A stretch of DNA of 64,000 bases, taken from a bacterium (GTDB taxonomy: Bacteria; Sysuimicrobiota; Sysuimicrobiia; Sysuimicrobiales; Humicultoraceae). Positions 1,997 through 58,063 of the stretch are shown one piece after another. The stretch's first letter is position 1, and each line of letters starts with the position of its first letter. The stretch covers positions 82,754-146,753 of the forward strand of contig DASYRG010000008.1 in the NCBI GenBank assembly GCA_036004665.1, written 5' to 3'. The notes beneath the pieces were generated by a model that had not been told where the DNA came from, did not search any database, and was given only the letters and a program-made list of their open reading frames with translations. The position numbers and the translations under genes were made by a program.

Positions 1997-2066
1997 AGAG
2001 CAGAAACGCACGCCCTCAGAAACTGTATCCCGTAGTTCGGTTTAAGAGGGCGTGCGTTTCTGCTCT
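1997..2066. repeat. nested-hairpin intergenic element, copy A: perfect 21-bp outer stem (AGAGCAGAAACGCACGCCCTC) around a 28-nt loop carrying the conserved core in reverse orientation; lies between the convergent asnS and 2070..2663 genes and probably acts as a bidirectional terminator
   Basis: Inverted repeat 1997-2017 / 2046-2066; loop AGAAACTGTATCCCGTAGTTCGGTTTAA is the reverse complement of the core seen in copies B, C and D. Confidence 0.7.
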
Positions 2067-2069
2067 TGC

Positions 2070-2663
2070 TTAGGTCGGATTCTCGTCCGCCTCCGGAGAC
2101 CCCACCGCCGCTGAACCGGGTTCTGAGGGTTCCAGGTCGGCGAGCAGAGTCGACCAGGCAGCGGCGAGCTCTTCCTCCGACGCATACGGCTGAGCCGTCA
2201 CCGCCCCTTCGCTCTCCCGCGTGACGATGACGCCCGCCGCCGCCTCAAGCGCCCGCAGCTCTCCGGCATCGACCGGGGGCTCCCCGTTCGTCTGCGCGTC
2301 TTCCAGGGCTTCGCGCGTCCGCCGCGCAATCTCTGCGCCGTCGCGCAGCAGGGCGGCCCAGAGGTGCCCCTCTTCGACCTCTGGCCCCGCGACCTCGTCG
2401 GCACCCTCCTGCGCCAGCGCCAAGAGGATGGGGGCGAGGGATCGGTCGAATTGACGCGGCGTCGTTTCCGGTGCCGCCTCCATCGTCGTGGGAGTGCGCC
2501 GGCGCCGGGTCCGCGCGCGCTTCGCCGGCGTCGCGCCCTCCTTGCCGAGCGCGGTGCGGGTCCGGGCCGGCAGATGGGCGATCGTCCGTTTCCGTTTCGC
2601 CGCCCTGATCGCTTTCTTGACGTTCGTGCGGGCTGCCGCCCGCTGTTTTCTGGTGGCCATCAC
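2070..2663 (-). CDS. hypothetical protein with a strongly basic N-terminus (ATRKQRAAARTNVKKAIRAAKRKR...) and an acidic C-terminal half; possibly a nucleic-acid-binding protein
   Basis: 197-aa ORF; good RBS (GAGGGAGGGTG) upstream of the ATG on the minus strand; ends 3 nt from hairpin element A. Confidence 0.6.
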   Translation of the reverse strand: MMATRKQRAAARTNVKKAIRAAKRKRTIAHLPARTRTALGKEGATPAKRARTRRRRTPTTMEAAPETTPRQFDRSLAPILLALAQEGADEVAGPEVEEGHLWAALLRDGAEIARRTREALEDAQTNGEPPVDAGELRALEAAAGVIVTRESEGAVTAQPYASEEELAAAWSTLLADLEPSEPGSAAVGSPEADENPT

Positions 2664-2755
2664 ACCCTCCCTCTACTGCTTATCTCACCCCGCGATCGTG
2701 GACACCGTTTCCATCGAGAGGTTACCCCGGACCGCGGTCCACGAATCGCCGTTGA

Positions 2756-2784
2756 TTGTCTCTGCGACCTCGCTGTGGTATAGT
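2756..2784 (+). promoter_or_regulatory. sigma-70-type promoter of the rimP-nusA-infB operon: -35 TTGTCT, 17-nt spacer, extended -10 TGgTATAGT
   Basis: Hexamers at 2756-2761 and 2779-2784 with TG at -15/-14; the hypothetical gene 2070..2663 runs divergently from this region. Confidence 0.55.
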
Positions 2785-2839
2785 GTGTGACGAAGACCGA
2801 TCCGGAGAGGCACCGGATCGCCCATCGTAGGGATACGGA

Positions 2840-2865
2840 GTGGGTTGCGGCCCGCTCTTTTTTTT
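2840..2865 (+). terminator. leader hairpin (GUGGG-UUGCGG-CCCGC) followed by a U8 tract; candidate intrinsic attenuator of the nusA operon
   Basis: Five-bp GC stem followed by TTTTTTTT at 2858-2865; an 8-T run is striking in a ~70% GC genome and lies between the promoter and the likely rimP start. Confidence 0.5.
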
Positions 2866-2880
2866 GAGCCGACTAACGAC

Positions 2881-3414
2881 GTGGCGAAAACACGGAGTCT
2901 CATCGCGGAGCAGGTGGCCGACCTGGCCAGGCCGATTGCAGCCCGCTGGGGTCTGGACCTCGTCGACGTGGAGGTGCTGGGTGAGGGACCCCGGACCGTC
3001 GTCCGCGTCCTGGCCGATGGAATCGACGGCGTGACGGTGAACGACCTGGCGCGGGTGTCCGAGGCGTTGTCCGGCCAGCTGGACGCGCACGACCTGATCG
3101 CGCACGCCTACACGCTGGAGGTCAGCTCGCCGGGGTTGGACCGCCCGCTGCGGAGTGAGGCCGACTTCGCACGCTTTGCGGGACGGTCCGTCGAGATCTG
3201 GGTCGACCCTCCGCTGGAAGGGCGGCGCCACTTCAAGGGGCGTTTGCTCGGTCTCCGGGGGATTGGCGGGCAGGAAGTGGAGCTGGAGCTGGGCGCCGGA
3301 GCGGGAACGGAGACGGTGCGGCTGGCCCGCGACCGGGTGACGGCAGCCCGACTGGTGGTGGACCAAGAGATGCTGAAGCAAGACCTGGCCAAAGGAGGCC
3401 GGAGAGACGGATGA
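2881..3414 (+). CDS. rimP: ribosome maturation factor RimP (start uncertain: GTG at 2881 or 2914; the ORF-track TTG at 2845 would read through the U8 tract)
   Basis: RimP-like segment WGLDLVDVEVLGEGPRTVVRVLADG; immediately upstream of nusA. Confidence 0.75.
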   Translation: MAKTRSLIAEQVADLARPIAARWGLDLVDVEVLGEGPRTVVRVLADGIDGVTVNDLARVSEALSGQLDAHDLIAHAYTLEVSSPGLDRPLRSEADFARFAGRSVEIWVDPPLEGRRHFKGRLLGLRGIGGQEVELELGAGAGTETVRLARDRVTAARLVVDQEMLKQDLAKGGRRDG

Positions 3415-4757
3415 ACGCGGAACTCGTGCGCGCGCTGGAGCAGCTGGAAGAGGAGAAGGGGATCAGCAAGGAGGTCATCGTCGAAGCGATTGAGGCCGCC
3501 CTGCTCTCCGCCTACAAGAAGAACTTCGGCGTCACCGCCCAGAACATGCGGATCGAGGTCGATCGGGACACCGGCGAAGTGCGGGCCTTTCAGATCCGCA
3601 CCGTCACCGAAGAGGTTGAGGATCCCACGACCCAAATCGCCCTGGCCGAGGTGCGGCAGTATGACCCCTCCGCAGCCATCGGCGACATGGTGGAGTTGGA
3701 GGTGACGCCCAAGGACTTCGGCCGGATCGCTGCCCAGACGGCGAAGCAGGTCGTCGTCCAGCGGCTGCGCGAGGCGGAGCGGGAGATGGTCTACAAGGAG
3801 TTCCGCGACCGCGAAGGCGACATCGTCACCGGGGTGGTGCAGCGGATCGAGCGGAAGAACGTCTATCTCGATCTGGGGCGGATCGAGGCGGTGTTGCCGC
3901 CGCCCGAGCAGATCCCGCGGGAATCCCATCGCCAGGGCGAGCGGGTGAAGGCGTATGTTGTGGAGGTGCGGCAGGGCACGCGCGGGCCGCAGATCGTGGT
4001 CTCGCGCACGCACCCTGGCCTCCTCAAGCGGCTCTTTGAGCTGGAAGTGCCGGAGATCTATGAAGGCATCGTGGAGATCAAGGCGATCGCCCGCGAAGCC
4101 GGGGCGCGCAGCAAGATCGCCGTGGCCTCGCGCGACAAGAACGTGGACGCCGTCGGCGCCTGCGTGGGGCCAAAGGGATCGCGCGTGCAGGCGATCGTGG
4201 ACGAACTGCGCGGCGAGAAGATCGACATCATCCTCTGGAACATCGACACGGCGCTCTTCGTCGGCGCCGCGCTCTCGCCGGCCAAGGTGGTGCGCGTCGA
4301 CGTCAACGAGGAGACGAAGACCGCCCAGGTGATCGTGCCCGACCACCAGCTCTCCCTGGCCATCGGACGTGAGGGGCAGAACGCCCGGCTGGCCGCGAAG
4401 ATGACGGGCTGGCGGATTGACATCAAAAGCGAAACCCAGTTGAAGGAGATCGAGGCGCAGAAGCTCTTCATTGACCTGCCGCCCGAGGAGGCGGCCGCGC
4501 CGGCGCCGGTCGGCGAGGCGGCCGCGTCGGAGGCAGCGTCCGAGGGCGCGACGCCGGCCGACCAGCCGTCTCCGCCTGTGGAGGCTCCGGTCCCGGCAGA
4601 CGCCTCCGGGGGAGAGGCGGAGGAGCCTGCCGCGGCGGTCGAGGGAGAGGGGACGAAAACGGCCGCGAGGGAGGCCGGCGGCGCAGAGGACGGGGAAGCG
4701 GGCGCGGAGGAGGAAGAGGAGAAAGCGGCGCAACCCGCGGGGGAGACCGCGGGTTAG
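3411..4757 (+). CDS. nusA: transcription termination/antitermination factor NusA with an Ala/Glu-rich acidic C-terminal tail
   Basis: 448 aa; S1 and KH regions (GDIVTGVVQRIERKNVYLDLG, KIAVASRDKNVDAVGACVGPKGSRVQAIVDEL); ATG overlaps the rimP stop. Confidence 0.9.
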   Translation: MNAELVRALEQLEEEKGISKEVIVEAIEAALLSAYKKNFGVTAQNMRIEVDRDTGEVRAFQIRTVTEEVEDPTTQIALAEVRQYDPSAAIGDMVELEVTPKDFGRIAAQTAKQVVVQRLREAEREMVYKEFRDREGDIVTGVVQRIERKNVYLDLGRIEAVLPPPEQIPRESHRQGERVKAYVVEVRQGTRGPQIVVSRTHPGLLKRLFELEVPEIYEGIVEIKAIAREAGARSKIAVASRDKNVDAVGACVGPKGSRVQAIVDELRGEKIDIILWNIDTALFVGAALSPAKVVRVDVNEETKTAQVIVPDHQLSLAIGREGQNARLAAKMTGWRIDIKSETQLKEIEAQKLFIDLPPEEAAAPAPVGEAAASEAASEGATPADQPSPPVEAPVPADASGGEAEEPAAAVEGEGTKTAAREAGGAEDGEAGAEEEEEKAAQPAGETAG

Positions 4758-4768
4758 GAGAGAGCACC

Positions 4769-5107
4769 GTGCCGCCTCGAGTCCACAAGATCCCCCAGCG
4801 CATGTGCGTGGGCTGCCGGGAGATGCGCGCCAAGCGTGAGATGGTACGCGTGGTCCGCACACCCGGCGGGGAGATCCAGGTCGATCCCACGGGGAAGGCG
4901 GCGGGGCGTGGGGCCTATGTCGATCCCCGGGACGCCTGCGTGACCGCCGCCATCCGGGACCGCCGGCTGGCCCAGGCCCTCGAAAGGGAGATTCCGGCCG
5001 AGATCGCCGAGGCGCTGCGCGCCGCCCTCACCCGGCCGGCCGGGTCGGCCGAACCAAAAGTCATCAGGATTCCCGCGACACGCGGACGGAGTGCACAGAG
5101 GACATAG
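4769..5107 (+). CDS. ylxR: YlxR/DUF448 RNA-binding protein
   Basis: 112 aa; conserved MCVGCR motif; sits between nusA and infB as in Bacillus. Confidence 0.8.
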   Translation: MPPRVHKIPQRMCVGCREMRAKREMVRVVRTPGGEIQVDPTGKAAGRGAYVDPRDACVTAAIRDRRLAQALEREIPAEIAEALRAALTRPAGSAEPKVIRIPATRGRSAQRT

Positions 5108-5110
5108 CGC

Positions 5111-7660
5111 ATGCGCGTCTACGAACTGGCCAAAGAACTGGGGCTCAGCAGCAAGGACCTCATCGAGGTCCTCGGGCAGCTGATGGTTTCGGTCAAGAGC
5201 CACTCCTCCACACTCGACGAGGTGACCGAGCGCCGCGTCCGGGAGGAGGTCGCGTCCCGACACGCCTCGCGCCAGACCGCTGCTGGCAAAGCCACCACCG
5301 GAAAAGCTGCCGCCGGCAAGGCATCGGCGAAAGCCGCTCCGGCGAAGGCGGCGAGGGCCCCGGCCAAGCCGACCCTGGACACGCCCGCCGCATCCCCAGA
5401 ACCTGCGCGCGCCGACGTGAAGACGCCGACGGGAGAACGCATCCTCTCGATCCGCAAGATCGTCGCTCCGCCCCCCGAACCGGCGGCGGAGCCGGCCGCG
5501 CCTGCTCCAGCCGAGGCCGCTGCGGGTGAGCCCTCCCGCGCGCCCGGGGTCCGACCGCAGGAACTCGAGCGCCCGGCGGCGGCCGCGCCCAGTGCCGCCC
5601 CGGCGGTGCCCAAGGCGCCGGCTATCGGAGAGGGGGCGCCGATCCGCATTGCCCCGGTGAAACCCCCGACGCGGGAGGCCGCCCGTGAAGCCGCCCGCGA
5701 GACGGTCGCGCCCGCGGAGATGGCGCAGATCTTTGAGCCGACCGCCGCACCTCCGCTTCCGCCGGCCGAAACCCCGCCCCGGGAGGTGCGCCCCGTCACG
5801 CCGCCTTCGGCGCCGAGGCGGCCCGAACGCCGGCTCCCTCCGCCACCACCACCGCGGCGGTTCCATGCCGAACGGCGCCAACGGCGCACGGAGGCTAGGC
5901 CCGAACCAGTGCCGGAGGTTGCCCCCGTTCTGCCGGAGTCGATCAGCCTGACGGGTCCCATCGGCGTCGGCGAGCTTGCGGTGAAACTAGGCATGCCCGT
6001 CGGCGAAATCGTGAAGAAACTGCTCGAGTTCGGCATGCTGGCGGGGATCAACCAGCAGCTCACCGAGGAGGCGGCCGCCAGGACCATCAAGGCCTTCGGC
6101 GTGGCCGTCCACGGGCCGGAAGCGGCAGGCGCCGCAGGCCCGCGCGCGGCGGCCCCGGTGGACGAGGCGGCGGTGGCGCGTGCGCCGGTCGTCACGGTGA
6201 TGGGGCATGTCGACCACGGGAAGACCAGCCTGCTGGATGCCGTCCGCGCCACCTCCGTGGCCGCGCAGGAGGTCGGCGGCATTACCCAGCACATTGGCGC
6301 CTCCACCGTCGACGTCGACGGGCGGCGCATCGTCTTCATCGACACGCCCGGCCACGAAGCCTTTACCGCGCTGCGGGCCCGCGGCGCCCGCGTCACCGAC
6401 ATCGCCGTCCTGGTGGTGGCGGCGGACGACGGGGTGATGCCGCAGACGGTCGAGGCGGTTGACCATGCCCGCGCCGCGGGCGTGCCCATCATCGTGGCCA
6501 TGAACAAGACCGATCTGCCGCAAGCCAACCCGGATCGGGTGAAGCAGCAACTCTCCGACCTGGGCCTGGTCCCCGAAGAGTGGGGCGGGGAAACGGTCAC
6601 CGTGCCGGTCTCGGCGCGGCAGCGTCAGGGCCTCAAAGAATTGCTCGAGATGATTCTTTTGGTGGCGGACCTGCACGAACTGCGGGCCAATCCGGAACGG
6701 CCGGCTCGCGGCACCATCCTCGAGGCGCGAATGGACCGCGGCCGGGGCCCGGTGGCGACGGTCCTCGTGCAGGAGGGGACGCTGCGCGTAGGCGATGCGG
6801 TCATCGCCGGTGAGACGTTGGGACGCGTGCGCGCGCTGCTCGACGAACGCGGCGCCCGCGTGGGCACGGCCGGGCCGGCTACCCCGGTCGAAGTCGTGGG
6901 GCTGGAGTCGTTGCCCAACGCCGGAGACGTGCTGGAGGTGACATCCGAGGATCGAGCGGCTCGCGTGATGGCGCAGGAACGGGCCGACCGCCGCCGGGCC
7001 ACTGAGGGGGCCGCGCGCGGCGGCCTAGTCGAGCGCATCGGTGAGACGGGGCGGGTGGAGCTGCGCCTCATCGTCAAGGCCGACGTTCACGGCTCGGCGG
7101 AAGCCCTGCAGGCGGCCCTCGCCAGGCTGGAAGACGCCGAGGTGGCGGTCTCGGTCCTGCACGTCGCGGTGGGACCGATCACCGAATCGGACGTGATGCT
7201 GGCGGCGGCGAGTCGGGCGGTGATCGTGGGCTTCAACGTGCGCCCCGAGGCGGCAGTGCGGCGGTTGGCCGAGCAGGAGAAGGTCGAGATCCGCCTCTAC
7301 CGCATCATCTACGAGGTTCTCGACGACCTGGCGGCACTGGTGCGCGGGCTGCACGCCCCCAAGACCCAGGAGGTCGTCCTCGGTCAGGCCGAGGTGCGCC
7401 AGACCTTCGCCATCCCCAAGGTTGGGACCATTGCCGGGTGCTACGTCACCAGCGGGCGCATCCTCCGCGGCGCCTCCGCGCGGCTGCTGCGCGAAGGCGC
7501 GGTCGTCTATCAAGGGGCCATCAGCTCGCTGCGGCGGTTCAAGGACGACGTGCGCGAGGTGGCCGAAGGCTTCGAGTGCGGTATCGGGCTGGAGCGCTTC
7601 CAGGACATCAAAGCCGGCGACATCATCGAAGCCTATCAGATGCAGCAAGTCCCGGCCTGA
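5111..7660 (+). CDS. infB: translation initiation factor IF-2
   Basis: 849 aa; [12 protein letters not shown]-terminus, Ala/Pro-rich linker, GTPase motifs [17 protein letters not shown] and DTPGHEAF. Confidence 0.95.
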
Positions 7661-7684
7661 GCGCGCCGGCGGCAGGGAGGCCAG

Positions 7685-7966
7685 GTGATCGTCGGAGTGC
7701 TGCGGGCCGAGTTGTCCCTCGGCGGGGTGCGCAGCCTGAAGGACAAGCGGCGGATCATCCAGAGCCTGCTCGACCGGGCGCGGCGGCAGTTTCGCGTCGC
7801 GGCCGCCGAGGTGGAGGCGCAGGACTCCTGGCGGCGGGCCGTCCTCGGGTTCGCCTGCGTCAGTTCGGAGGGCGCCCACGCCAGTCAGATTCTGGCGCGG
7901 GTGACCGCGATGATCGAGCGGGAAGGCGACGTCACCCTGCTGGACGCCTCCAGCGAACTACTCTGA
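7685..7966 (+). CDS. ylxP: DUF503 protein (YlxP-like)
   Basis: 93 aa; GTG start; conserved position between infB and rbfA. Confidence 0.75.
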   Translation: MIVGVLRAELSLGGVRSLKDKRRIIQSLLDRARRQFRVAAAEVEAQDSWRRAVLGFACVSSEGAHASQILARVTAMIEREGDVTLLDASSELL

Positions 7967-7969
7967 GTT

Positions 7970-8458
7970 ATGAGCCTGCGACGGGAGAAGCTCCAGGAGC
8001 TGTTCAAAGAGGAGACCGGCGTCATTCTGCAGCGGCGCCTGCGCGACCCCCGCGTCGGGTTCGTCTCGGTCACCGACGTCGAGCTCAGCGGGGACCTGCG
8101 CCACGCCAAGATCTTCGTCAGCGTGCTCGGGGACGCAGAGACCAAGCACCGTACCATGGCCGCCCTCGAGGGGGCCGCGCGGTTCGTGCGCGGCGAACTG
8201 GGGCGGCGCGTGCGGATGCGCTACGTGCCCGAGGTCCTCTTCCGGCTGGACGAATCCATCGAGCGCGGAGCCCGCGTCAACGCGCTGCTGCGTCAGGTCG
8301 TTCCTCCGGCCGACCGCGCTCCCGAGTCCCCCGAGTCCGACCAACACCCGTCGCCTGCGGCTGAGGAAGACCCTTCGGCTGAGTCCGGGGAGCCCCCGGT
8401 CGAGCGAGATGATGATGCCGCGCGCCCGCATCGCCGCCTCCCTCCGCAACGCCGATAG
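7970..8458 (+). CDS. rbfA: ribosome-binding factor A with a C-terminal extension
   Basis: 162 aa; RRLRDPRVGFVSVTDVELSGDLRHAKIFVSVLG RbfA core. Confidence 0.85.
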   Translation: MSLRREKLQELFKEETGVILQRRLRDPRVGFVSVTDVELSGDLRHAKIFVSVLGDAETKHRTMAALEGAARFVRGELGRRVRMRYVPEVLFRLDESIERGARVNALLRQVVPPADRAPESPESDQHPSPAAEEDPSAESGEPPVERDDDAARPHRRLPPQRR

Positions 8459-9431: not shown

Positions 9432-9433
9432 CA

Positions 9434-11272: not shown

Positions 11273-11394
11273 AATCAATGATGGCCCCGGCTGGGAGCGC
11301 CGAAGCTCCAACGGCTTCTCGGCTGCGGGCGTCGCTGTATCATCGCCCTCGCCGCCCCATGCGCGGATCCGGCGGGGGATCGGAGGAGCACCCA

Positions 11395-11664: not shown

Positions 11665-11696
11665 ACGGCTGGTGGCATAGCATCGAGCACCGAGGA

Positions 11697-11786: not shown

Positions 11787-11817
11787 GACGTGAGCCAGTA
11801 ACCATCAGGAGGATGGC

Positions 11818-14226: not shown

Positions 14227-15518
14227 TGACGCAGCGGACTGAACACACCATCCTGCCGAACGGCATCCAGGTGATCACCGAGACGATGCCCGCGGTGCGC
14301 ACGGCCGCGGTGGGCATTTGGATCGGCACCGGCTCGCGCTACGAGGAGGCGGCCCTGGGGGGGATCTCCCACTTCCTCGAACACCTCTTCTTTAAAGGCA
14401 CGGAGAGTCGCACCGCCCTCGACATCGCCAGCGCGGCTGACGCCATCGGCGCGCAGCTCAACGCCTTCACCGACCGGGAAGGCACCGTCCTCTACGGCAA
14501 GGCGCTGTCGAACCACCTTCCCGCCGTCCTCGACCTGATGGCGGACATGCTGCTGCGCGCCTCCCTGGACCCCGAGGCCCTGGAGCGGGAGCGGCAGGTG
14601 ATCCTCGAAGAGATCAAGATGTATGAGGACTCACCGGACGAGCTCGTGCAGGATCTCTTTGCCCAGACCGTCTGGAACGGCCATCCCCTCGGCCGGCCGG
14701 TCATCGGCACGGTGGACACGGTGCGCGCCCTCACGCGCGAGGACTTCCTGCGCTACCGGGCGCAGCACTACCGGCCGGGCAACGTCATCGTGGCCGTGGC
14801 CGGCGACGTCCGCCACGCCGAGGTCGTCGGGCTGGTGGCCGAACGTCTCGGAGCGTGGGAGGGGGCGGTCCCCGCACGGCCAACCGAGCGTCCTTTGGTC
14901 CGTCCCGATATCTCGCTGCGCCCTAAAGAGACTGAGCAGGTGCACCTCACCGTGGGCACGCGGGGACTGCCGCAGGGAGACGAAGGGCGATACGTCATGG
15001 CTATCCTCGACGGAATCCTGGGCGGGGGGATGTCCAGCCGGCTCTTTCAGGAGATCCGGGAGCGGCGCGGCCTGGTGTACACCATTACCACCTACCACTC
15101 CGCCTACCGGGATGCCGGGCTCTTCGTCGTCTATGGGGCGATGAGCCCGCCGGCGGCGCCGCAGGTGACCTCGCTCATCATGGAAGAGTTCGAGAAGATC
15201 AAGGACCGGATTCCCCCCGAGGAACTGAGCCGGGCCAAGGAGTCCCTCAAGGGCGTGATCATGCTGTCGCTGGAGTCCACTGACAGCCGGATGTTCAACC
15301 TGGCGCGCTCGCAGATCTACTTCGGCCGGCAGTTCACCCTTGATGAGATCCTGGCGCGCATCGACGCGGTCACCGCCGAGCAGGTGCAGGCGATGGCGGC
15401 GGAGACCCTCATCCCGGAGCGGCTGGCGCTGGCGGCCATCGGACCGTTCCGCCCTGACGGATCCCTCTCCCGCACACTCACGCAGGCCTTCCGCGCGGAA
15501 AGCGCACTCACCGCGTAA
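14226..15518 (+). CDS. M16-family zinc peptidase (MlpA/YmxG-like)
   Basis: 430 aa; HFLEHLFFKGT inverted zincin motif; ATG overlaps the pnp stop (ctgATGa). Confidence 0.85.
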   Translation: MTQRTEHTILPNGIQVITETMPAVRTAAVGIWIGTGSRYEEAALGGISHFLEHLFFKGTESRTALDIASAADAIGAQLNAFTDREGTVLYGKALSNHLPAVLDLMADMLLRASLDPEALERERQVILEEIKMYEDSPDELVQDLFAQTVWNGHPLGRPVIGTVDTVRALTREDFLRYRAQHYRPGNVIVAVAGDVRHAEVVGLVAERLGAWEGAVPARPTERPLVRPDISLRPKETEQVHLTVGTRGLPQGDEGRYVMAILDGILGGGMSSRLFQEIRERRGLVYTITTYHSAYRDAGLFVVYGAMSPPAAPQVTSLIMEEFEKIKDRIPPEELSRAKESLKGVIMLSLESTDSRMFNLARSQIYFGRQFTLDEILARIDAVTAEQVQAMAAETLIPERLALAAIGPFRPDGSLSRTLTQAFRAESALTA

Positions 15519-15530
15519 GGGTCTCTAAGA

Positions 15531-15601
15531 GAGGATGAGAGCCGCACCCTCGGAAACCGAACTACAGGATCACGGTTTCCTTGGGTGCGGGTCTCATCCT
15601 C
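15531..15601. repeat. nested-hairpin element copy B: 19-bp outer stem with one mismatch, inner 8-bp stem GGAAACCG/CGGTTTCC, 13-nt apical loop AACTACAGGATCA
   Basis: Read directly; begins 13 nt after the M16 peptidase stop. Confidence 0.7.
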
Positions 15602-15655
15602 GCGTACAAATCCTCACCCGGTGGGCCCGTTACGAGCGGGGATCGCGTGCGTGTG

Positions 15656-15724
15656 AGGCTGAGGAACCCATCCGAGGAAACCGTGATCCTGTAGTTCGGT
15701 TTCGGAGGATGGGTTCCTCAGCCT
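15656..15724. repeat. nested-hairpin element copy C: 18-bp perfect outer stem of unrelated sequence; the core is the reverse complement of copy B's, matching 28 of 29 positions
   Basis: Read directly; ends 17 nt before the dapB GTG. Confidence 0.7.
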
Positions 15725-15740
15725 GAGAGGTACGTTCGCC

Positions 15741-16547
15741 GTGACGGACGCGATCCGGGTGGTTGTGAGTGGTGCGGCGGGGAGAATGGGGCGCGCGGCC
15801 GTGCGCGCCATCGCCGGCAGCGCCGATCTGGCGCTCACTGGTGCGGTGGGACGCAGCCGGGCGGTCGGCGACGATGCCGGCCTGACCGCGGGGCTCTCCG
15901 CTCTCGACGTCCGGATCGACGACGACCTTGCATCCCTGCTGGATCGCACGCGCCCCGACGTGCTGGTGGAGTTCGCCCCAGGCGCCGCGGCGGCGGCGCA
16001 TGCGCGGACGGCCATTCCGCGGGGCGTGCGTCCGGTGATCGGCGCGACCGGCCTCGCCCCCCAGGACGTTCAGGATCTCACAGGGCTGTGCGAAGCCCGC
16101 CGGGTCGGCGCCGTCATCGCCCCCAACTTCGCTCTGGGGGCGGTCCTGATGATGCAGTTCGCGCGCGCCGCCGCGCGGCACTTTCCCCACGTTGAAGTGA
16201 TCGAACTCCACCATGACCGTAAGCGCGACGCCCCCTCCGGCACCGCTGCCAAGACCGCGCAGATGATTGCCGACGCCCGGGGCGAGGCGCCAGTGCCGAA
16301 GGTCCAGGAGGAAGAGACCGCGGCGGGGGCGCGGGGCGGGACGGTGGGCGGCGTGCGGGTGCACAGCGTCCGCCTGCCCGGGCTGGTCGCCCATCAGGAG
16401 GTCATCTTCGGCGGTGCTGGCCAGGCCCTGACCATCCGCCATGACTCCTTCAACGAAGAGTCCTTCATGCCAGGGTTGCTGCTGGCGATCCGCCGCGTGA
16501 TGTCCTTGAGCAGCCTGGTCTACGGCCTGGAGAACCTGCTCGAGTAG
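15741..16547 (+). CDS. dapB: 4-hydroxy-tetrahydrodipicolinate reductase
   Basis: 268 aa; IRVVVSGAAGRMGRA NAD(P)-binding N-terminus; GTG start. Confidence 0.85.
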   Translation: MTDAIRVVVSGAAGRMGRAAVRAIAGSADLALTGAVGRSRAVGDDAGLTAGLSALDVRIDDDLASLLDRTRPDVLVEFAPGAAAAAHARTAIPRGVRPVIGATGLAPQDVQDLTGLCEARRVGAVIAPNFALGAVLMMQFARAAARHFPHVEVIELHHDRKRDAPSGTAAKTAQMIADARGEAPVPKVQEEETAAGARGGTVGGVRVHSVRLPGLVAHQEVIFGGAGQALTIRHDSFNEESFMPGLLLAIRRVMSLSSLVYGLENLLE

Positions 16548-16564
16548 GCCCCGACCGTCTCTCT

Positions 16565-17677
16565 ATGCGTATCGAGCGCATCGAGGTCTACGGCTACGAC
16601 CTCTCCTATGCACACGGAGAGTACGTCATGTCGGGTGGCCGCGCCGTCAGCCGTCTGCCCTCGACCGTCGTCCGCGTCCTGACCGATACGGACGCGGAAG
16701 GGTATGGGGAGGTCTGCCCGCTGGGTCCCACCTACCTACCCTCGTTTGCCGAAGGGGCGCGGGCGGCCCTGCGCGTGCTGGCTCCCGCGCTGATCGGCGC
16801 CGACCCCCTCAACCTGGCGGCCGTCGGCGAGCGGCTCGACCACGCGCTGCGCGGGCACGAGTATGCGAAGAGTCCGCTGGACGTCGCCTGCTGGGACATT
16901 CTTGCCAGAACCGCGGGCCAGCCGCTGACGACACTGCTGGGCGGGGTGCGGCAGACCCAGTTCGCTCTCTACATGGCCGTCCCGCTCGGTCCGGCGGAGG
17001 CGATGGTCGAGTACGTCCTCGCCCGCCGGGCTGAGGGCATCCACCGGTTTCAGTTGAAGGTTGGGGCGGATCCACGGGAGGACGCCGCGAGGGTCCGGCG
17101 CGTCGTGGAGGCAACCCAGGAAGACGACGTGGTCATCGCCGACGCCAACGGTGGGTGGCGGCTCAACGACGCACTCGTCGCGGCGCGGTTGCTTGAACCG
17201 ATGTCTCGCGTCTACCTGGAGCAGCCCTGTCCCACACTCGAAGAGTGCGCGTGGATCCGGTCGATCACCTCTCTGCCGATGATCTATGATGAGATCGTCA
17301 CCGATGTCCCCTCGATGCTGGCCGTCGTGCGGGAGGGTGGAGGCGGAGGGATCAATCTCAAGATCAGCCGGGTCGGTGGCCTCAGCCGGGCGCGAGTGCT
17401 CCGTGATCTGGCTGAAGCCCTGGGCATCGCGTTGACGATCGAGGATTCCTGGGGCGGGGACGTGGTGACCGCGGCAGTGAGCCATCTGGCCGCGACGGTG
17501 AGGCCGGAGGCGCTCTTTACCGTCTCCTTCATGAACGACTGGGTGAACGAGCATGTCGCCGGCTATCAGCCGCGCTCCCGGGGCGGCTTTGGCGCCCCTC
17601 CGGCGCAGCCCGGACTGGGTATTGACGTCGACCGGTCCGTTCTGGGCGCGGCACTCTTCGTCACTCCGGACATCTGA
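16565..17677 (+). CDS. enolase-superfamily enzyme (mandelate racemase / muconate lactonizing enzyme family; possibly a dipeptide epimerase-like protein), embedded in the dap operon
   Basis: 370 aa; MR/MLE N-terminal and TIM-barrel regions with the expected K and D/E metal ligands (KVGADP, IADANGGW, LEQPC). Confidence 0.7.
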   Translation: MRIERIEVYGYDLSYAHGEYVMSGGRAVSRLPSTVVRVLTDTDAEGYGEVCPLGPTYLPSFAEGARAALRVLAPALIGADPLNLAAVGERLDHALRGHEYAKSPLDVACWDILARTAGQPLTTLLGGVRQTQFALYMAVPLGPAEAMVEYVLARRAEGIHRFQLKVGADPREDAARVRRVVEATQEDDVVIADANGGWRLNDALVAARLLEPMSRVYLEQPCPTLEECAWIRSITSLPMIYDEIVTDVPSMLAVVREGGGGGINLKISRVGGLSRARVLRDLAEALGIALTIEDSWGGDVVTAAVSHLAATVRPEALFTVSFMNDWVNEHVAGYQPRSRGGFGAPPAQPGLGIDVDRSVLGAALFVTPDI

Positions 17678-17717
17678 CGCAAGGAACGCTTCGAACGCGC
17701 AGCGAAATTTCGAGAGA

Positions 17718-18782
17718 ATGAGCGGGGAAGGATTCACGGTCGCCGTCGTCGGCGCCACCGGCGTGGTCGGGAGTGAGATGGTCCGGGTTCTCTCCCAACG
17801 CGGTTTTCCCGTCAGACGTCTCCGCCTCTTCGCGACCGCGCGCTCTGCCGGTCGACACCTCCCCTTCGGGGATCACGACCTCGAGATTGAAGAGACCTCG
17901 GCGGCGGCCCTGGCCGGCCATGAGGTCGTGCTCTTCGCCGGAGGGGACGATGCCAGCCGGCAGTTCGCCTGGACCGTCGCCGACGGCGGCGGGGTGGCGA
18001 TCGACAACTCTTCTACCTGGCGGCTCGACCCCCGCGTGCCGCTCGTCATCCCCGAAGTGAACGCGCACCTCCTCGCCACCCACCAGGGGGTCATCGCCAA
18101 CCCCAACTGCACGGCCGCCACGATCGTGATGGTGCTCGCGCCGCTGCATCGCGCGGCCGGCATCAAGCGAGCGGTGGTGGCGACCTACCAATCGGTCTCC
18201 GGAGGCGGCGCCGACAACGTGCGCGCCCTGCTCGAGCAGACCCGGGCGCTGCTGGACGAGGCGGACGCCCTCCAGTTCGGCCCCCTAGACCGGATCGAGC
18301 GGGCGGCGGGCACGCCGCACCCGCTCGCCTTCAATGTCCTGCCGCAGTGGAAGTGGGGCCCAGACGGGTACACCGAAGAGGAGCTGAAGATCGTCGTCGA
18401 GACCCACAAGATCATGGACGCCGACTTTCCGGTGCTGCCCACCACCGTGCGGGTGCCGGTGCTGGTCGGCCACACCGTGGCGATGCATCTGGACCTGGAG
18501 CGTCCACTCCCGCCCGAAGAGGCGCGCCGGATTCTGGCGGCGAGTGCGGGAGTCGAAGTGGTGGACGCCCCCGAAGCGGGCCGATTCCCCACACCGGTGC
18601 TCAGCGCGGGGCGGGACGAGGTGCTGGTGGGACGCATCCGCCGCGATCCCACCTCGGCCACCGGGCTGCTCCTGGTCGCCGCGGGCGACAATCTGCGCAA
18701 GGGCGCCGCCCTCAACGCGGTGCAGATTGCGGAAGCCCTCGTGGCTCAGCGGCTGCTGCCGCGGGCACCGGCACGGGCGTGA
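17718..18782 (+). CDS. asd: aspartate-semialdehyde dehydrogenase
   Basis: FTVAVVGATGVVGSEMVRVL N-terminus, NPNCTA active-site Cys; ATG at 17718; the ORF-track start at 17553 overlaps the enolase-family gene. Confidence 0.9.
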   Translation: MSGEGFTVAVVGATGVVGSEMVRVLSQRGFPVRRLRLFATARSAGRHLPFGDHDLEIEETSAAALAGHEVVLFAGGDDASRQFAWTVADGGGVAIDNSSTWRLDPRVPLVIPEVNAHLLATHQGVIANPNCTAATIVMVLAPLHRAAGIKRAVVATYQSVSGGGADNVRALLEQTRALLDEADALQFGPLDRIERAAGTPHPLAFNVLPQWKWGPDGYTEEELKIVVETHKIMDADFPVLPTTVRVPVLVGHTVAMHLDLERPLPPEEARRILAASAGVEVVDAPEAGRFPTPVLSAGRDEVLVGRIRRDPTSATGLLLVAAGDNLRKGAALNAVQIAEALVAQRLLPRAPARA

Positions 18783-18819
18783 TCGAGCAGGGGAGGAGAG
18801 TCAAAGGACTGCCGTTCGC

Positions 18820-20067
18820 ATGTCCGTGATCGTCCAGAAATACGGCGGCGTGCTGCTTGCCACGCCGCAGGGACGGGAGGAGGTGGCCGCCCAGGTCATC
18901 GCCACCCGCAGCGAGGGCGCTCGGGTAGTGGTTGTGGCCTCCGCCATCGGTCGTGAAGGAGATCCGTACGCGACCGACACGCTGCTCGGTCTGGCCACCC
19001 AGGTCGACCCGACCGTTTCCCCGCGCACCCTGGACCTGCTGCTCAGCTGCGGCGAGATCATCTCCACGGCCCTTCTGGCGCACACGCTCGAGCGCGCGGG
19101 CGCCCCAGCGGTGGCGCTGACCGGGTTGCAGGCCGGGATCCAGACGACCGGGGATTTCGGTGAGGCCCGCATCCTGCACATCGACCCCATCCCGATCCGC
19201 GCCCACCTCGACGGCGGCCGCATCGCCGTGGTGGCCGGGTTTCAGGGGGTGACCGCCGAGCAGGAGGTGACCACGCTGGGGCGCGGCGGCAGCGACACCA
19301 CCGCCATCGCGCTGGGCGCGGCGCTGCCGGCGGATCTGGTGGAGATCTACAAGGACGTGGAAGGAGTCATGACCGCCGATCCCAAAGTTGTGCCAGAGAG
19401 CCGCGTGATCTCGCAGATCTCCTACGATGAGGTCTCGCAGATGGCGGCCCTCGGCGCGCGAGTGATCCATCCGCGCGCGGCAGACATCGGCCGCGAGCAC
19501 GACGTGCGGGTGGTCATCCGCCGGATGGGGTCCGGACGGACCGGAGGCACTCTGTTGGTGCGCGGCCCTGAACTGGGCGTGCCGATCAGCGACGGACGCC
19601 CGGTGATCGCCCTCGCCCATCTGCCCGACGTCGTACAGCTGCGGCTGCGCCGTCCGGCGGGCGAATCCCTCACCCATCCCCTCAAAGCGCTGCGGCGGCT
19701 GGCCGCCGAGGGGATCAGCATCGACCTGATCACGCTGATGTCCGACCTGCTCGCGTTCACGGTCCGGGAAGAGGACTACGAGCGCGCCGTGCGGCTCCTC
19801 CAGGGCGAAGGCTACGAGGCCTCCGTGACCCGTCCCTGCGCCAAGGTCTCGATCATCGGCGCGGGGATGCGCGGCGTCCCCGGCGTGATGGCCAGGGTGG
19901 TGAAGGCGCTCGAGGCGGCGGAGGCGGAGATCCTGCAGACCGCCGATTCGCACACCACCATCTCCTGCCTGGTCCGGCGGGAGCAGATGGAGCGGGCCCT
20001 GCGCGGCCTGCACGACGAGTTCGGGCTGGGTGAGGCGGTGGCGTCGGAACGGGAGGCTCCTGGCTAA
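18820..20067 (+). CDS. lysC: aspartate kinase with C-terminal ACT domains
   Basis: MSVIVQKYGGVLL N-terminus, GRGGSDTTA motif; the ATG at 18820 is in frame with the ORF-track ORF that starts at 18544. Confidence 0.9.
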   Translation: MSVIVQKYGGVLLATPQGREEVAAQVIATRSEGARVVVVASAIGREGDPYATDTLLGLATQVDPTVSPRTLDLLLSCGEIISTALLAHTLERAGAPAVALTGLQAGIQTTGDFGEARILHIDPIPIRAHLDGGRIAVVAGFQGVTAEQEVTTLGRGGSDTTAIALGAALPADLVEIYKDVEGVMTADPKVVPESRVISQISYDEVSQMAALGARVIHPRAADIGREHDVRVVIRRMGSGRTGGTLLVRGPELGVPISDGRPVIALAHLPDVVQLRLRRPAGESLTHPLKALRRLAAEGISIDLITLMSDLLAFTVREEDYERAVRLLQGEGYEASVTRPCAKVSIIGAGMRGVPGVMARVVKALEAAEAEILQTADSHTTISCLVRREQMERALRGLHDEFGLGEAVASEREAPG

Positions 20068-20163
20068 ACAGACGAGGGAGAGGGAGGTCTCCAACGACAG
20101 CGGACAAGCGGCGCTCGAGGGCGCTCGAGGGCCCGCGAACAGAGACGACAGGAGGGGAGCGCG

Positions 20164-21057
20164 ATGATGCAGTTCGGGTACGTGATCACCGCGATGGCGA
20201 CGCCGTTTGACCGGGAGGGGCGGCTCGATGAGCGCCGCGCCGGGGAGCTGGCGCGCCGGCTGGCCGAGCACGGCAGCGAGAGCCTGGTGGTCGCCGGGAC
20301 CACGGGCGAGTCGCCGACCCTCTCCGATCAGGAGAAGATCACGCTCTTCCGCATCGTCAAAGAGGCGGCGGGAGGGCGGGCCAAGGTCATCGCCGGGACG
20401 GGCACCTACGACACCGCCCACTCGATCCACCTGACGAAAGAAGCCGCGCGCGCAGGGGCCGACGGCATCCTGCTGGTCAACCCCTACTACAACCGGCCCA
20501 GCCAGGATGGGCTCTACGCGCACTTCCGTGCGGTCGCTGAATCCACCACGCTGCCTGTGATCCTCTACAACATTCCCGGCCGCACTGGCGTGAACTGCCT
20601 CCCTGATACCGTGGCCCGCCTGGCCGAGGTTCCTAACATCGTGGGGATCAAGGAAGCGACCGGCAGTCTCGACCAGGCCTCCGACGTCCGCAAGCGCACG
20701 CCCCGGGACTTCGTCATCTACTCCGGGGACGACAGCCTGACCCTGCCGATGCTGGCGGTAGGCGGGACGGGGGTGGTGAGCGTCGCCTCCCACCTGGCCG
20801 GCGAGGAGATCGGCAAGATGATCCGCGCGTTCCACGGTGGCGACACCTCCACCGCCCTGGCGCTGCATCTGCGGCTGTGGCCGCTGTTCAAGGTCCTCTT
20901 CATCACGACCAACCCGGTTCCGCTCAAAGCCGCGCTCCGTCTGGCCGGCTTCGACGCGGGCGCCCCGCGGCTGCCGCTCGTGGAGGCCACACCGAAGGAG
21001 CAGGAGCAGATCCGCTCGGTGCTGGCGGAGCTGTCCCTGCTGCCTGTGGCCGTCTGA
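20164..21057 (+). CDS. dapA: 4-hydroxy-tetrahydrodipicolinate synthase
   Basis: 297 aa; VVAGTTGESPTLS, YNIPGRTG and catalytic Lys region GIKEATG. Confidence 0.9.
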   Translation: MMQFGYVITAMATPFDREGRLDERRAGELARRLAEHGSESLVVAGTTGESPTLSDQEKITLFRIVKEAAGGRAKVIAGTGTYDTAHSIHLTKEAARAGADGILLVNPYYNRPSQDGLYAHFRAVAESTTLPVILYNIPGRTGVNCLPDTVARLAEVPNIVGIKEATGSLDQASDVRKRTPRDFVIYSGDDSLTLPMLAVGGTGVVSVASHLAGEEIGKMIRAFHGGDTSTALALHLRLWPLFKVLFITTNPVPLKAALRLAGFDAGAPRLPLVEATPKEQEQIRSVLAELSLLPVAV

Positions 21058-21656
21058 TCGCTCCTCGGAATCCCGCAGCGACACGGCACGCCCTCGAGTC
21101 CCTGCACGGGCAGATTCGCCGCTGCCGGCGTTGCCGGCTGTGGCGGACCCGTCTGAAGGCGGTCCCGGGGGAAGGCCCGGCCACGGCCACGGTGATGCTG
21201 GTGGGGGAAGGCCCCGGCAGACAGGAGGACGAGCAGGGGCGGCCCTTTGTGGGGGCCGCCGGCCGCGTGCTCGACGGGATACTGGCCGCGGCCGGGCTGT
21301 CCCGGGAGGATGTCTACATCACGAACGTCGTGAAGTCTCACCCCACGGAGCGTAAGAGCGGTCCCAACAGGGCGCCCCGCCCCGATGAAGCCGCCGCCTG
21401 CCGGCACTGGCTGACCCAGCAGGTGGCGATCCTGCGGCCGCGTCTGATCGTGACGCTGGGCGCGCATGCGCTGGCGGCCTTCGACCCAACGGCGAGGCTC
21501 TCGGCGGTGCACGGCCGGCCGTTCCAGCGGGAGGGGCTTACCATCCTTCCGCTCTTCCACCCCGCGGTCACCTTTCATGGGGTCTCCCCGGAGACGCTTC
21601 GCGCGGACGCCCGCAAGATTCGCACCCTCCTGGCCCGGCCGAAGGCGAACCGGTGA
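21054..21656 (+). CDS. udg: family-4 uracil-DNA glycosylase (Fe-S type); no ATG/GTG/TTG at the expected N-terminus, so the start is uncertain
   Basis: CRRCRL...GEGPGRQEDEQGRPFVGAAGRVL and HP..RKSG motifs typical of UDG family 4. Confidence 0.7.
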   Translation: MIAPRNPAATRHALESLHGQIRRCRRCRLWRTRLKAVPGEGPATATVMLVGEGPGRQEDEQGRPFVGAAGRVLDGILAAAGLSREDVYITNVVKSHPTERKSGPNRAPRPDEAAACRHWLTQQVAILRPRLIVTLGAHALAAFDPTARLSAVHGRPFQREGLTILPLFHPAVTFHGVSPETLRADARKIRTLLARPKANR

Positions 21657-23389
21657 CCGCCGCACCCACCCGGCGGGGTCCCCCGCGGAGCCGCCGGGCG
21701 CGGCCTCGCGCTCACCAGGAGAGGCCGGCGCCGGCCAAGGGCGGCGGGCAGCTGCAGATCATCCCCCTGGGCGGCGTCGGGGAGATCGGCAAGAACGCCA
21801 CCCTGATCCAATCTGGGAGCGACGCCCTCCTCGTCGACGCCGGACTGCGTTTCCCCGAAGAAGAACTGCTGGGGATCGACCTGGTCATCCCCGACTTCTC
21901 CCTGATCGCCCAGCGGCACGTGCGTCTGCATGGGGTGGTGCTCACGCACGGCCACGAAGACCACATTGGGGCGCTGTCCTTTCTGTTGGACCGTGAACAC
22001 CCCATGGTCGTCGGCTCGCCCCTGACCGTGGCCATGGCAAAGGAGCGCGCCGCCGAGCGCAGTAAGGAGGCGCGCTGGCGACCCACCGCCTACCGCGAGG
22101 AGGTCGGGCTCGGTCCGTTCCAGGTCGAGCTGGTGCGGGTCAGCCACAGCATTCCCGGCGCGGCCGCGGTGGTGGTGCGCGCGGGCGGACGCGCGGTCGT
22201 GGTGAGCGGCGACTTCAAGTTCGATCAGACACCCGTCGACGGACAGCCCACGGACGTGGCCCGGCTGGCGGAGGTGGGGGAGGCTGGCGTGACGGCGCTG
22301 TTGCTGGACAGCACGAACAGCGAGCGACCCGGCTACACGCCGTCGGAGCGGGTGGCGGGGGAGGCGCTGGCCCGCCGGGCCGAGGGGGTGGGCGGACGCA
22401 TCATCGTCACAACGTTTTCCAGCAACGTGCACCGCCTGCAGCAGGTGATCGATCTGGGCGCCGCTATCGGCCGCCGCGTCGGCGTGGTCGGCCGGTCGAT
22501 GGAGCAGAGCGTGCGCATCGCCCAGGCGACCGGCCATCTCAAGGCGCCCAAGGGCGTGCTCGCCACGGTGGAAGAGGTGCGCCAGCTCCCCGACGACCGC
22601 GTGATCATTCTCATCACCGGCAGCCAAGGGGAGCCGCTCTCGGGCCTTTCCCGCGTGGCGGCGGGCACCCACCGCGCCCTCAGCCTCAAGCGCGGGGACA
22701 CCGTTATCTTTTCGGCGTCGGCGATCCCCGGCAACGAGGCGGTGGTCGCGCGGACGATCGACAATCTCTTCCGCCGCGGCGCGGAGGTGATCTACGGGCG
22801 CGAGAGCGGGGTACACGTCTCCGGGCACGGGGCGGCGGAGGAGTTAAAGCTGATGACCAACCTGCTGCGCCCGCAGGTGTTCATCCCGGTGCACGGGGAG
22901 TACCGGATGCTCGTCCAGAACAGCCGCCTGGCGGCGCAGACTGGCATCCCCGCCTCCCGCATTCTTCTGGGGGAGAACGGCACGATCTTCGAGTTCGGGG
23001 CGCACCCCCGCATCTCGGGAAGGCTGCAGGCGGGCAACGTCCTCGTCGATGGGCTGGGTGTGGGCGACGTCGGCGCTATCGTTCTGCGGGACAGGCAGCA
23101 CCTCGCCCGCGATGGGATGGTCATCGTGCTGCTGGGACTGGATCAGGCCACCGGGGAGGTCGTCAGCGGGCCCGACGTGGTCTCCCGCGGCTTCGTCTAC
23201 ATGCGGGAAGCGGAGCCGTTGTTGGCCGAAGTACGCGGGCGTGTCTCCGACACGATCAAGGGCCTGCAGAAGACACAGGGCACCGACTGGGCCGAGGTGA
23301 AGCGCGCCATCCGCGACGACCTGAGCCGGTTTCTCTACGACCGCACCCGCCGGCAACCGATGATTCTCCCTATGGTGGTGGAAGTCTGA
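21653..23389 (+). CDS. rnj: ribonuclease J (metallo-beta-lactamase / beta-CASP)
   Basis: 578 aa; LTHGHEDHIG motif and beta-CASP region; GTG start overlaps the UDG stop; follows dapA as rnjB does in Bacillus. Confidence 0.9.
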   Translation: MTAAPTRRGPPRSRRARPRAHQERPAPAKGGGQLQIIPLGGVGEIGKNATLIQSGSDALLVDAGLRFPEEELLGIDLVIPDFSLIAQRHVRLHGVVLTHGHEDHIGALSFLLDREHPMVVGSPLTVAMAKERAAERSKEARWRPTAYREEVGLGPFQVELVRVSHSIPGAAAVVVRAGGRAVVVSGDFKFDQTPVDGQPTDVARLAEVGEAGVTALLLDSTNSERPGYTPSERVAGEALARRAEGVGGRIIVTTFSSNVHRLQQVIDLGAAIGRRVGVVGRSMEQSVRIAQATGHLKAPKGVLATVEEVRQLPDDRVIILITGSQGEPLSGLSRVAAGTHRALSLKRGDTVIFSASAIPGNEAVVARTIDNLFRRGAEVIYGRESGVHVSGHGAAEELKLMTNLLRPQVFIPVHGEYRMLVQNSRLAAQTGIPASRILLGENGTIFEFGAHPRISGRLQAGNVLVDGLGVGDVGAIVLRDRQHLARDGMVIVLLGLDQATGEVVSGPDVVSRGFVYMREAEPLLAEVRGRVSDTIKGLQKTQGTDWAEVKRAIRDDLSRFLYDRTRRQPMILPMVVEV

Positions 23390-23395
23390 CAGATG

Positions 23396-23467
23396 GGTGG
23401 TGAGCGGATGGGGTCGGGGCCGCCGAACGACGGGATCACGGCGTCCCTCGCCCATCCGCTCACCACC
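23396..23467. repeat. nested-hairpin element copy D: 17-bp outer stem GGTGGTGAGCGGATGGG/CCCATCCGCTCACCACC, a diverged inner stem, apical loop AACGACGGGATCA
   Basis: Core CCGAACGACGGGATCACGG matches copy B at 17 of 19 positions; the outer and inner stems differ from B but still pair. Confidence 0.65.
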
Positions 23468-23574
23468 ACCCGCAGGCTTGACCACCAAAGGGAGAAGGCG
23501 TCAAGCTGCCGAAGTGGACTGACATCGTACGTGAAATCGGCAGAAGTTCGTCGGACCCTTCACCGGAGCAACGT

Positions 23575-58060: not shown

Positions 58061-58063
58061 CCC

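Follow-up and report, generated by a model that had tools for sequence, protein, structure and literature searches.

A family of two-tier hairpin repeats behind stop codons in uncultured Armatimonadota, probably of the REP/BIME/REPIN kind

The 64-kb stretch of bacterial DNA analysed here (contig DASYRG010000008.1; hereafter the window) carries five copies of a ~75-nucleotide (nt) two-tier hairpin repeat, mostly as back-to-back pairs after stop codons. All five, named c0 to c4, lie within the first 24 kb: the doublet c0/c1 follows asnS, the doublet c2/c3 lies between an M16 peptidase gene and dapB, and the singlet c4 separates the RNase J gene (rnj) from bacA. A model scan found the genes of the other 40 kb without a trailing copy. 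A preliminary description of the window had placed four nested hairpins behind asnS, the M16 gene and rnj. All four are present where it put them, and Pfam confirms these neighbours and adds dapB and bacA; the count was one short, as a covariance model recovers a fifth copy at 1870–1947. The window contains four exact matches to the core, the 14-mer CCGAACKACRGGAT. The copies and their flanking genes are as follows, with the earlier coordinates in brackets.

568–1875, + strand: asnS (Pfam tRNA-synt_2 and anticodon-binding OB domains)
1870–1947, + strand: copy c0, a degenerate hairpin with core CCGAACGATGGGAT (covariance model 55.5 bits, E = 2.6e-10)
1900–1913: core of c0 with one mismatch, located by motif search
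1948–1992: spacer of doublet c0/c1, ~45 nt, the interval between the two model matches
1993–2070, core on the − strand: copy c1 (1997–2066), 65.9 bits
14226–15518, + strand: M16 peptidase gene (Pfam Peptidase_M16 and M16_C), upstream of c2/c3
15527–15605, + strand: copy c2 (15531–15601), 85.4 bits
15606–15650: spacer of doublet c2/c3, evolving at about the neutral rate
15651–15729, core on the − strand: copy c3 (15656–15724), 88.8 bits, with orthologous copies in relatives
15741–16547, + strand: dapB (Pfam DapB_N and DapB_C), downstream of c2/c3
21653–23389, + strand: rnj, RNase J gene (Pfam RNase_J domains), upstream of c4
23392–23471, + strand: copy c4 (23396–23467), a singlet, 64.5 bits

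The copies sit close to the gene ends. The lead of c0, CCCTAG, includes the asnS stop codon TAG (1873–1875), and the outer end of c1 adjoins the stop of an open reading frame (ORF) at 2070–2663 on the − strand, whose TAA is 4 nt from the c1 stem. Similarly, c2 starts 9 nt past the M16 stop at 15518 and c4 starts 3 nt past the RNase J stop at 23389, with bacA (23575) downstream. Copy c3 ends 12 nt upstream of the dapB start (15741), and no − strand gene faces it.

Each unit spans ~70–80 nt and consists of an outer stem of 17–22 base pairs (bp), an internal loop of 2–3 nt on each side, an inner stem of 6–8 bp and an apical loop of 12–13 nt, measurements that uphold the nested architecture first described. 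The fold z-scores of c1–c4 against dinucleotide shuffles range from −5.5 to −12.2 on either strand, far beyond chance, and those of c0 are −5.9 on the + strand and −8.2 on the − strand. Except for one long, imperfect repeat, likewise centred on c2, no short-range inverted repeat of the 64 kb is longer than those of c1–c4. Twenty-nine copies align over their full length to one consensus, nnnnnGGGCTGAGnnnCnCACCCTCnGAAACCGAACTACGGGATCACGGTTTCnTCGGGTGnGnnCCTCAGCCnnnCnn, in which an outer arm GGCTGAG..CAC.CCTC leads into GAAACCG-loop-CGGTTTC. A covariance model was built from this alignment and then used to scan the window and related loci, yielding 58 copies that align end to end in 259 kb of sequence from the window and related metagenome genomes. 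The outer stems had been described as differing completely between copies, which this consensus contradicts: the stem base GGCTGAG/CTCAGCC is semi-conserved, the inner stem GAAACCG/CGGTTTC and the 13-nt loop AACKACNRGMTCA are conserved, and c2 and c3 have ~13 of 20 stem positions in common. Copy c4 belongs to a divergent subtype with the inner stem GCCGCCG/CGGCGTC. Variation is concentrated in 5–6 mid-stem bp, which are essentially unique to each copy and are compensated on the opposite arm. Copies of the same genome are ~50% identical in their stems and ~88% identical in the apical module, and the closest true paralogues are 77% identical (highest within-genome identity 0.77).

The stems covary strongly. 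RNAalifold places 25 pairs on the 29-copy alignment, and 22 of these show compensatory (double) changes. Across the 58 copies, 94.5% of stem cells are paired against 70.3% after shuffling, the covariation score is 0.608 against 0.153 for shuffled and at most 0.109 for slid controls, and 322 cells are altered on both sides of a pair while 7 are altered on one side alone. The stem cells (n = 1420) comprise 1332 Watson–Crick, 10 G:T, 40 A:C and 38 other oppositions. Because the copies share a full-length consensus and their stem changes are paired and compensated, they are old, diverged members of one family, not a conserved core placed in unrelated stems.

The usual unit of organisation is a ~200-nt doublet in which a copy with its core on the + strand is followed by one with its core on the − strand. 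There are 23 such (+,−) doublets at ~16 distinct sites and no (−,+) doublets; as this order is invariant under reverse complementation, the asymmetry is real. The spacers are mostly 41–55 nt (~45), with a few of 12–16 nt and others of up to ~125 nt, and whole doublets of unrelated loci align with c2/c3 over ~195 nt at 71–75% identity, spacer included. The two partners are of different stem subtypes, 'GAGAC.GGCACC' and 'GGGGACCACA', and each hairpin folds separately inside the doublet. One related locus (L-numbers denote the related loci and contigs used in comparison) holds 3–4 copies within 570 nt, at L078 3230–3797 between genes for an ACPS-type phosphopantetheinyl transferase and YjeF/NAD(P)HX repair; in this cluster one doublet has a spacer of only 4 nt, and there may be a degenerate copy that overlaps another. 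The family thus forms higher-order arrays, like the clusters of bacterial interspersed mosaic elements (BIMEs).

The family keeps a fixed relation to stop codons. Roughly 60 distinct copies in ~330 kb of related sequence, and the 5 in the window, are all intergenic or overlap a stop codon only. For ~25 copies, a gene on the strand of the core ends beside the stem, which begins −1 to +14 nt after the stop codon; only 3 copies have such a gene end on their other side (binomial p = 3e-5). The adjacent stop is TAA in 13 of 25 genes, compared with ~10 of 93 other genes (p = 3e-5, approximate). These stop-distance and stop-usage counts are approximate, as the crude ORF caller puts some genes on the wrong strand; the three 'stops' that it places at −7 for c3 orthologues, for example, probably belong to ORFs antisense to dapB. 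The hairpins often provide the TAA or TAG stop themselves; at its other end, the stem usually carries a TTA or CTA that pairs with this triplet. Between convergent genes one hairpin faces each gene; between co-directional genes, such as M16 and dapB, the second hairpin faces none. Intrinsic terminators likewise place a G+C-rich hairpin directly behind genes, but the present copies differ from them in having far longer stems, a common loop sequence, a doublet arrangement and no U-tract after the hairpin on either strand (the tails read YYACRCG or T-N-R without a T run). A consensus terminator scan lists none of the copies, and canonical U-tract terminators stand at chance level in window 1–20 kb (8 against 6.0 ± 2.3).

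The two strands of a hairpin are distinguishable. The conserved internal loop is pyrimidine–pyrimidine (mostly TC/TC) on the core strand, which is the strand usually present in the upstream mRNA, and GA/GA on the other. Interior stem oppositions on the core strand are A:C in 24 cases and G:T in 8 (p = 0.007), and, as RNA, 50 of 57 copies are more stable when folded from the opposite strand (mean −50.5 against −45.8 kcal/mol); for c0 (1866–1952) the values are −57.4 kcal/mol on the opposite strand and −42.6 on the core strand. The 3′ tail of the core strand is YYAC(R)CG; on the opposite strand this gives a (C)GTRR that precedes the palindrome and is conserved at only ~45–55% per position. The gene-proximal end carries T-N-R, and the terminal triplets are complementary (TAA...TTA), not directly repeated.

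The family recurs in other genomes, as the preliminary description had anticipated, within narrow limits. A scan of 185,579 species genomes (one per species) for the exact core returned 83 stretches, and nested hairpins came from two metagenome-assembled genomes only, JBOGSD01 ('bacterium M3-S_metabat2.bin.423') and JACQGZ01 ('Armatimonadetes bacterium'); the exact core is also found in a few JGI metagenome contigs. The lineage of the window is uncultured, its named relatives are Armatimonadota, and the family is confined to one small subclade of these. About 60 of the 83 stretches were discarded as chance or coding matches, mostly to one Actinomycetota membrane-protein segment. In many Nocardioides and other Actinomycetota a 19-nt core coincides with the conserved coding segment GCCGAACGACAGGATCACGGTGCCGATCAGGATCA on the reverse strand of an apparent membrane-protein gene (L007–L009, L015, L016, L020, L021, L031, L033 and others), which makes it a trap for motif-only searches. 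The metagenome matches L098 and L102 were rejected as coding-sequence coincidences. The exact core has no match among viral contigs, so a phage origin is unsupported.

Searches of catalogued families agree with the earlier statement that the hairpins match no listed RNA. At the gathering threshold of Rfam 15, tRNA-Sec is the only match in the window, and at E ≤ 10 the c2/c3 region returns only sub-threshold eukaryotic microRNA-precursor and small nucleolar RNA models, because the hairpins are long. A CRISPR array, already doubted, was rejected as the copies are mutually inverted, dispersed over 22 kb and placed behind separate genes, and riboswitch, ribozyme and tRNA-like readings were rejected on architecture. 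A full-text literature search for Armatimonadetes palindromic intergenic repeats returned nothing relevant, and the family is apparently undescribed.

Orthologous loci retrieved via dapB homologues reveal how single sites are occupied. At the M16–dapB site the states are as follows, with percentages referring to dapB unless stated.

Window, L084, L086, L088 and L092 (87–100%; L092 has no dapB figure and 84% DNA identity): doublet
L112 (83%): single hairpin, 31 nt past the stop
L110 (83%): empty, the genes abut
L111 (78%): empty, 4-nt gap
L089 and L091 (77%): empty, 0–3-nt gap
L090 (73%): empty, 18-nt gap

The c2 orthologues in L084, L086, L088 and L092 carry compensatory stem changes. In more distant relatives dapB abuts or overlaps the M16 gene, leaving an empty site, and the covariance model has no match anywhere in the empty-site outgroup loci (M16–dapB gap 0–18 nt). 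The single L112 hairpin (2209–2287), which has two G:T oppositions in its outer stem, could be an intermediate between an empty site and a doublet. The rnj–bacA site has c4 in the window, the whole hairpin in inverted orientation in L086 and L088, and no hairpin in L084 or the outgroup L091. The close relative L084 thus lacks the entire ~80-nt hairpin. Its sequence at 17586–17610 (window 23387–23485) shows CTCTCAC right after the RNase J stop, resembling the element ends CTCACAC/CTCTCA; this could be an excision footprint, and as a single case it is indistinguishable from chance. Orthologous sites are thus filled, inverted or empty, with no hairpin at the empty ones, and members of one subclade have therefore acquired, and perhaps lost or inverted, whole hairpins as units.

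Once in place, the hairpins change slowly. Between the window and L084, outer stems differ at 2 of 74 positions, inner stems at 0 of 30 and loops at 3 of 26, whereas spacer plus flank differs at 21 of 82 (26%; spacer alone 14 of 54) and 4-fold degenerate sites have diverged by 0.33. Stem divergence is lower than that of spacer plus flank (p = 3e-5) and of 4-fold sites (p = 9e-10), and orthologous outer and inner stems change ~10 times more slowly than neighbouring neutral sequence. If the palindromes were kept perfect by arm-to-arm correction alone, faster stem change would be expected. Against the more distant L086 and L088 (4-fold divergence 0.40–0.48) the stems differ by ~27%, with nearly all changes compensated, the pattern that selection on pairing produces. 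Some of the L086/L088 stem changes are blocks that match other paralogues of the same genome, for example CACCTTCCAAAACCG...CGGTTTTGTCCGGTG, common to L086 c2 and L061.

Taken as a whole, these features make it probable, though well short of certain, that the copies are a lineage-specific family of repetitive extragenic palindromic (REP), BIME or REPIN-like elements that were mobile in the ancestor of the clade and are now fixed and kept as hairpins. The family looks like this lineage's counterpart of the E. coli REP/BIME repeats and is best classed as a new one within the REP kind, not placed in an existing one. In the ancestor of one Armatimonadota subclade it would have spread through transposition-like copying that most plausibly relied on an enzyme which recognises single-strand hairpins, such as a tyrosine (HUH) transposase of the RAYT type. 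Insertions may have settled where they were tolerated, right behind stop codons that their TAA/TAG-like ends could replace, and resident copies would then be maintained as hairpins through selection on pairing. Their most likely effect would be to give the upstream mRNA a strong 3′-end hairpin that hinders 3′ exonucleases or read-through. Within 15 nt of a stop codon they may also act as a brake on translation termination, as for E. coli REPs, which according to Liang et al. 2015, as reported in PMC12306157, stall terminating ribosomes when placed at most 15 nt from the stop codon.

The preliminary description could not match the hairpins to REP/BIME, a conclusion that the architecture reverses. 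REPs are small palindromes of 20–50 nt with stems of 5–13 bp and loops of 2–20 nt, dispersed and almost all extragenic (PMC8266576, PMC3733652), and in most REP families more than 90% of members carry an unpaired tetranucleotide tag of the GTAG or CGTC type (PMC3733652). Inverted heterodimers, 20–100-nt spacers, complementary stem changes, stop-providing termini and a conserved mismatch are among their described properties (PMC3733652, PMC8266576, PMC3116915). The present copies are likewise numerous, dispersed and extragenic within the sampled loci, with a conserved stem mismatch that distinguishes the strands, and they show the BIME/REPIN organisation of inverted units of two types joined by a linker. 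Enterobacterial REP/BIME (palindromic units y, z1 and z2, with the transposase TnpA_REP/RayT) are alike in being high-copy extragenic palindromes behind genes, in combining two unit types in inverted orientation with a linker, in their conserved stem mismatch and in commonly lying near stop codons (PMC8266576, PMC12306157). In contrast to these, the present units are about twice as long, have two helices (17–22 and 7–8 bp) and a conserved 13-nt loop that does not pair, carry a degenerate (C)GTRR tag instead of GTAG, and occur in the phylum Armatimonadota. In the REPINs of Pseudomonas, too, the unit of replication or organisation is an inverted doublet whose spacer length is conserved, compensatory changes are common, singlets stand beside doublets and vertical inheritance is long-lasting (PMC3116915). 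They are linked to flanking RAYT genes, and their two REPs pair with each other and have invariant 16-mers at the ends (PMC3116915), whereas each present unit is a long hairpin of its own with the apical part most conserved. Further parallels come from the GTAG/CGTC superfamilies (Di Nocera et al. 2013, PMC3733652), in which heterodimers are frequent, spacers measure 20–100 bp and those of the head-to-head class are conserved, the two stem arms change in complementary fashion, the loops of some families are complex and contain an inner paired region flanked by unpaired di- or trinucleotides, termini provide stops, and copies lie between unidirectional and convergent ORFs. These superfamilies differ from the present family in having stems of 5–13 bp and a tag in more than 90% of members, compared with much longer stems and a weak tag here.

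Several observations weigh against this assignment. No RAYT or other transposase was found by phmmer, with E. coli RayT and an IS200 TnpA sequence as queries, among 2,526 six-frame ORFs in the ~330 kb around the copies; the sequence covered is well under a tenth of any genome, so this negative is weak. There are no near-identical paralogues and no recent copies among those sampled, and so no sign of current mobility. The units exceed the REP size range at ~70–80 nt with stems of 17–22 plus 7–8 bp, although the 13-nt loop falls within the range described. RAYT-type enzymes tell a REP from an inverted REP by the stem mismatch and a GT-type tag (PMC8266576), and the (C)GTRR tag is too degenerate to count as proof. 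The genes beside the copies are ordinary housekeeping genes by Pfam checks. The excess of A:C oppositions and the stabler opposite strand are awkward for a purely mRNA-sense RNA function, and the slower-than-neutral change of the orthologues points to a host-level function that the label 'selfish repeat' alone leaves unexplained.

This last point leads to the alternative that fares best, which we regard as possible though doubtful, that the hairpin is a host-encoded structured element of 3′ untranslated regions whose conserved 13-nt loop and inner stem form a putative binding site for a lineage-specific protein. Candidate roles are a factor-dependent terminator, a processing or barrier site for RNase III, RNase J or PNPase, and a DNA-level binding site. 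Multiplicity would then come from functional recruitment and not from selfish spread, and the alternative overlaps with the REP-like reading, since both may hold for a domesticated repeat. Double-strand RNases could plausibly act on long perfect stems. The conservation of loop and inner stem (core identity ~0.88) beside stems that vary provided they pair is the pattern of a functional RNA, and the slow change relative to spacer and 4-fold sites, the strict rule of orientation and distance at stop codons and the chance-level frequency of canonical U-tract terminators in window 1–20 kb fit the same role. It is harder to reconcile with the genes of the window's last 40 kb, which are not followed by a copy, with the distal hairpin of co-directional doublets (c3), which faces no gene, and with c4, which is inverted in two relatives and missing in a third while the neighbouring genes are unchanged. 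Sister lineages also have the same operons without the family, and, in contrast to typical RNA helices under selection, the stems have almost no G–U pairs (10 of 1420 cells), which on the mRNA-sense strand are outnumbered by A:C. As stems evolve ~10 times more slowly than their surroundings, the stop-codon rule is strict and no transposase was seen, two further versions together have a rather small chance of being correct: a host-maintained, strand-asymmetric signal read by a lineage-specific protein, or a REP-like family that spreads without a RAYT by an unknown hairpin mechanism. The signal, placed at the stop codon, could be a factor-dependent terminator or a mark for mRNA 3′-end processing and protection, recognised through the 13-nt loop and the tandem G–A/Y–Y internal loop.

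Small elements of other kinds provide a further comparison. The Correia elements (NEMIS) of Neisseria are small non-autonomous inverted-repeat elements beside genes that are co-transcribed, form long hairpins and serve as RNase III targets and terminators. Their terminal inverted repeats are 26 bp long, their interior is conserved and they duplicate a TA target; such a duplication is not seen in the present family. A conventional miniature inverted-repeat transposable element (MITE) derived from a DDE-type insertion sequence, in which the ~200-nt doublet is the element and the hairpins are its long terminal inverted repeats, is unlikely. Its targets would be TA/TAA-like and, in a genome of 65–70% G+C, mostly stop codons. 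The doublets do behave as one unit, spacer included, T-N-R triplets stand at both outer ends, TAA is enriched at the adjacent stops, and orthologous sites differ by presence and absence. Set against this, the terminal triplets are complementary and no direct target-site duplication is visible (a weak test, with one close filled/empty pair), no insertion sequence with these ends was seen in ~330 kb, and singlets at clean sites (c4; L112) suggest that the hairpin, not the doublet, may be the insertion unit. DDE transposases bind terminal sequences, and the conserved internal mismatch and loop suit hairpin-recognising enzymes better.

Two mechanisms suggested in the preliminary description, a small conserved module (~29 nt) that enters the loops of terminator hairpins already in place and an element that copies its flanks in inverted form, are contradicted by the data and very unlikely. 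The 5–6 mid-stem bp essentially unique to each copy, around a conserved apical module, are what such processes would leave, but empty orthologous sites hold no hairpin, L084 lacks the whole of c4 and not merely a core, and orthologous stems diverge in place by compensatory change. The stems moreover share the GGCTGAG/CTCAGCC base, the CAC.CCTC segment and recurrent subtypes across unrelated loci and genomes. A recoding signal resembling a selenocysteine insertion sequence (SECIS), suggested by a hairpin with a conserved apical loop directly 3′ of the stop in a window that has selA, selB and tRNA-Sec, is scarcely credible, being contradicted by adjacent stops that are mostly TAA or TAG and not TGA, by the occurrence of both orientations and doublets, by the absence of an Rfam SECIS match and by housekeeping genes of normal length.

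If the family is of the REP type, Armatimonadota would be added to the eight phyla in which the 2013 survey recorded tagged REPs (PMC3733652). The family is also an unusually clean case for the question of whether such repeats are parasites or tools of the host, as old copies are fixed at orthologous sites in deeply diverged genomes, with compensatory change, conservation above neutral and a position within ribosome reach of the stop codon. With the covariance model, copies in metagenome-assembled genomes can be annotated and need not be mistaken for small RNAs, terminators or artefacts of assembly. Only the discovery of a dedicated binding factor, or of a mechanism of spread without a transposase, would make this a new class of biology.

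Three further features of these loci were observed. The − strand ORF at 2070–2663, convergent with asnS, encodes 197 amino acids, has a coding-like G+C content at third codon positions (0.82) and has no Pfam match. L086 and L088, which are orthologous to window 14.2–26.5 kb, differ from each other by a 4-fold divergence of 0.11 in rnj and 0.44 in dapB and have identical c2 hairpins; this mosaic divergence suggests recombination between lineages within the locus. A selenocysteine cluster at 54669–59436 comprises selA (54669–56063), selB (56060–58060) and tRNA-Sec (59346–59436, 67.7 bits). An ORF without a Pfam match lies on the opposite strand between selB and tRNA-Sec (58064–59302), and lptF/G-like and lptC/A-like genes come next.

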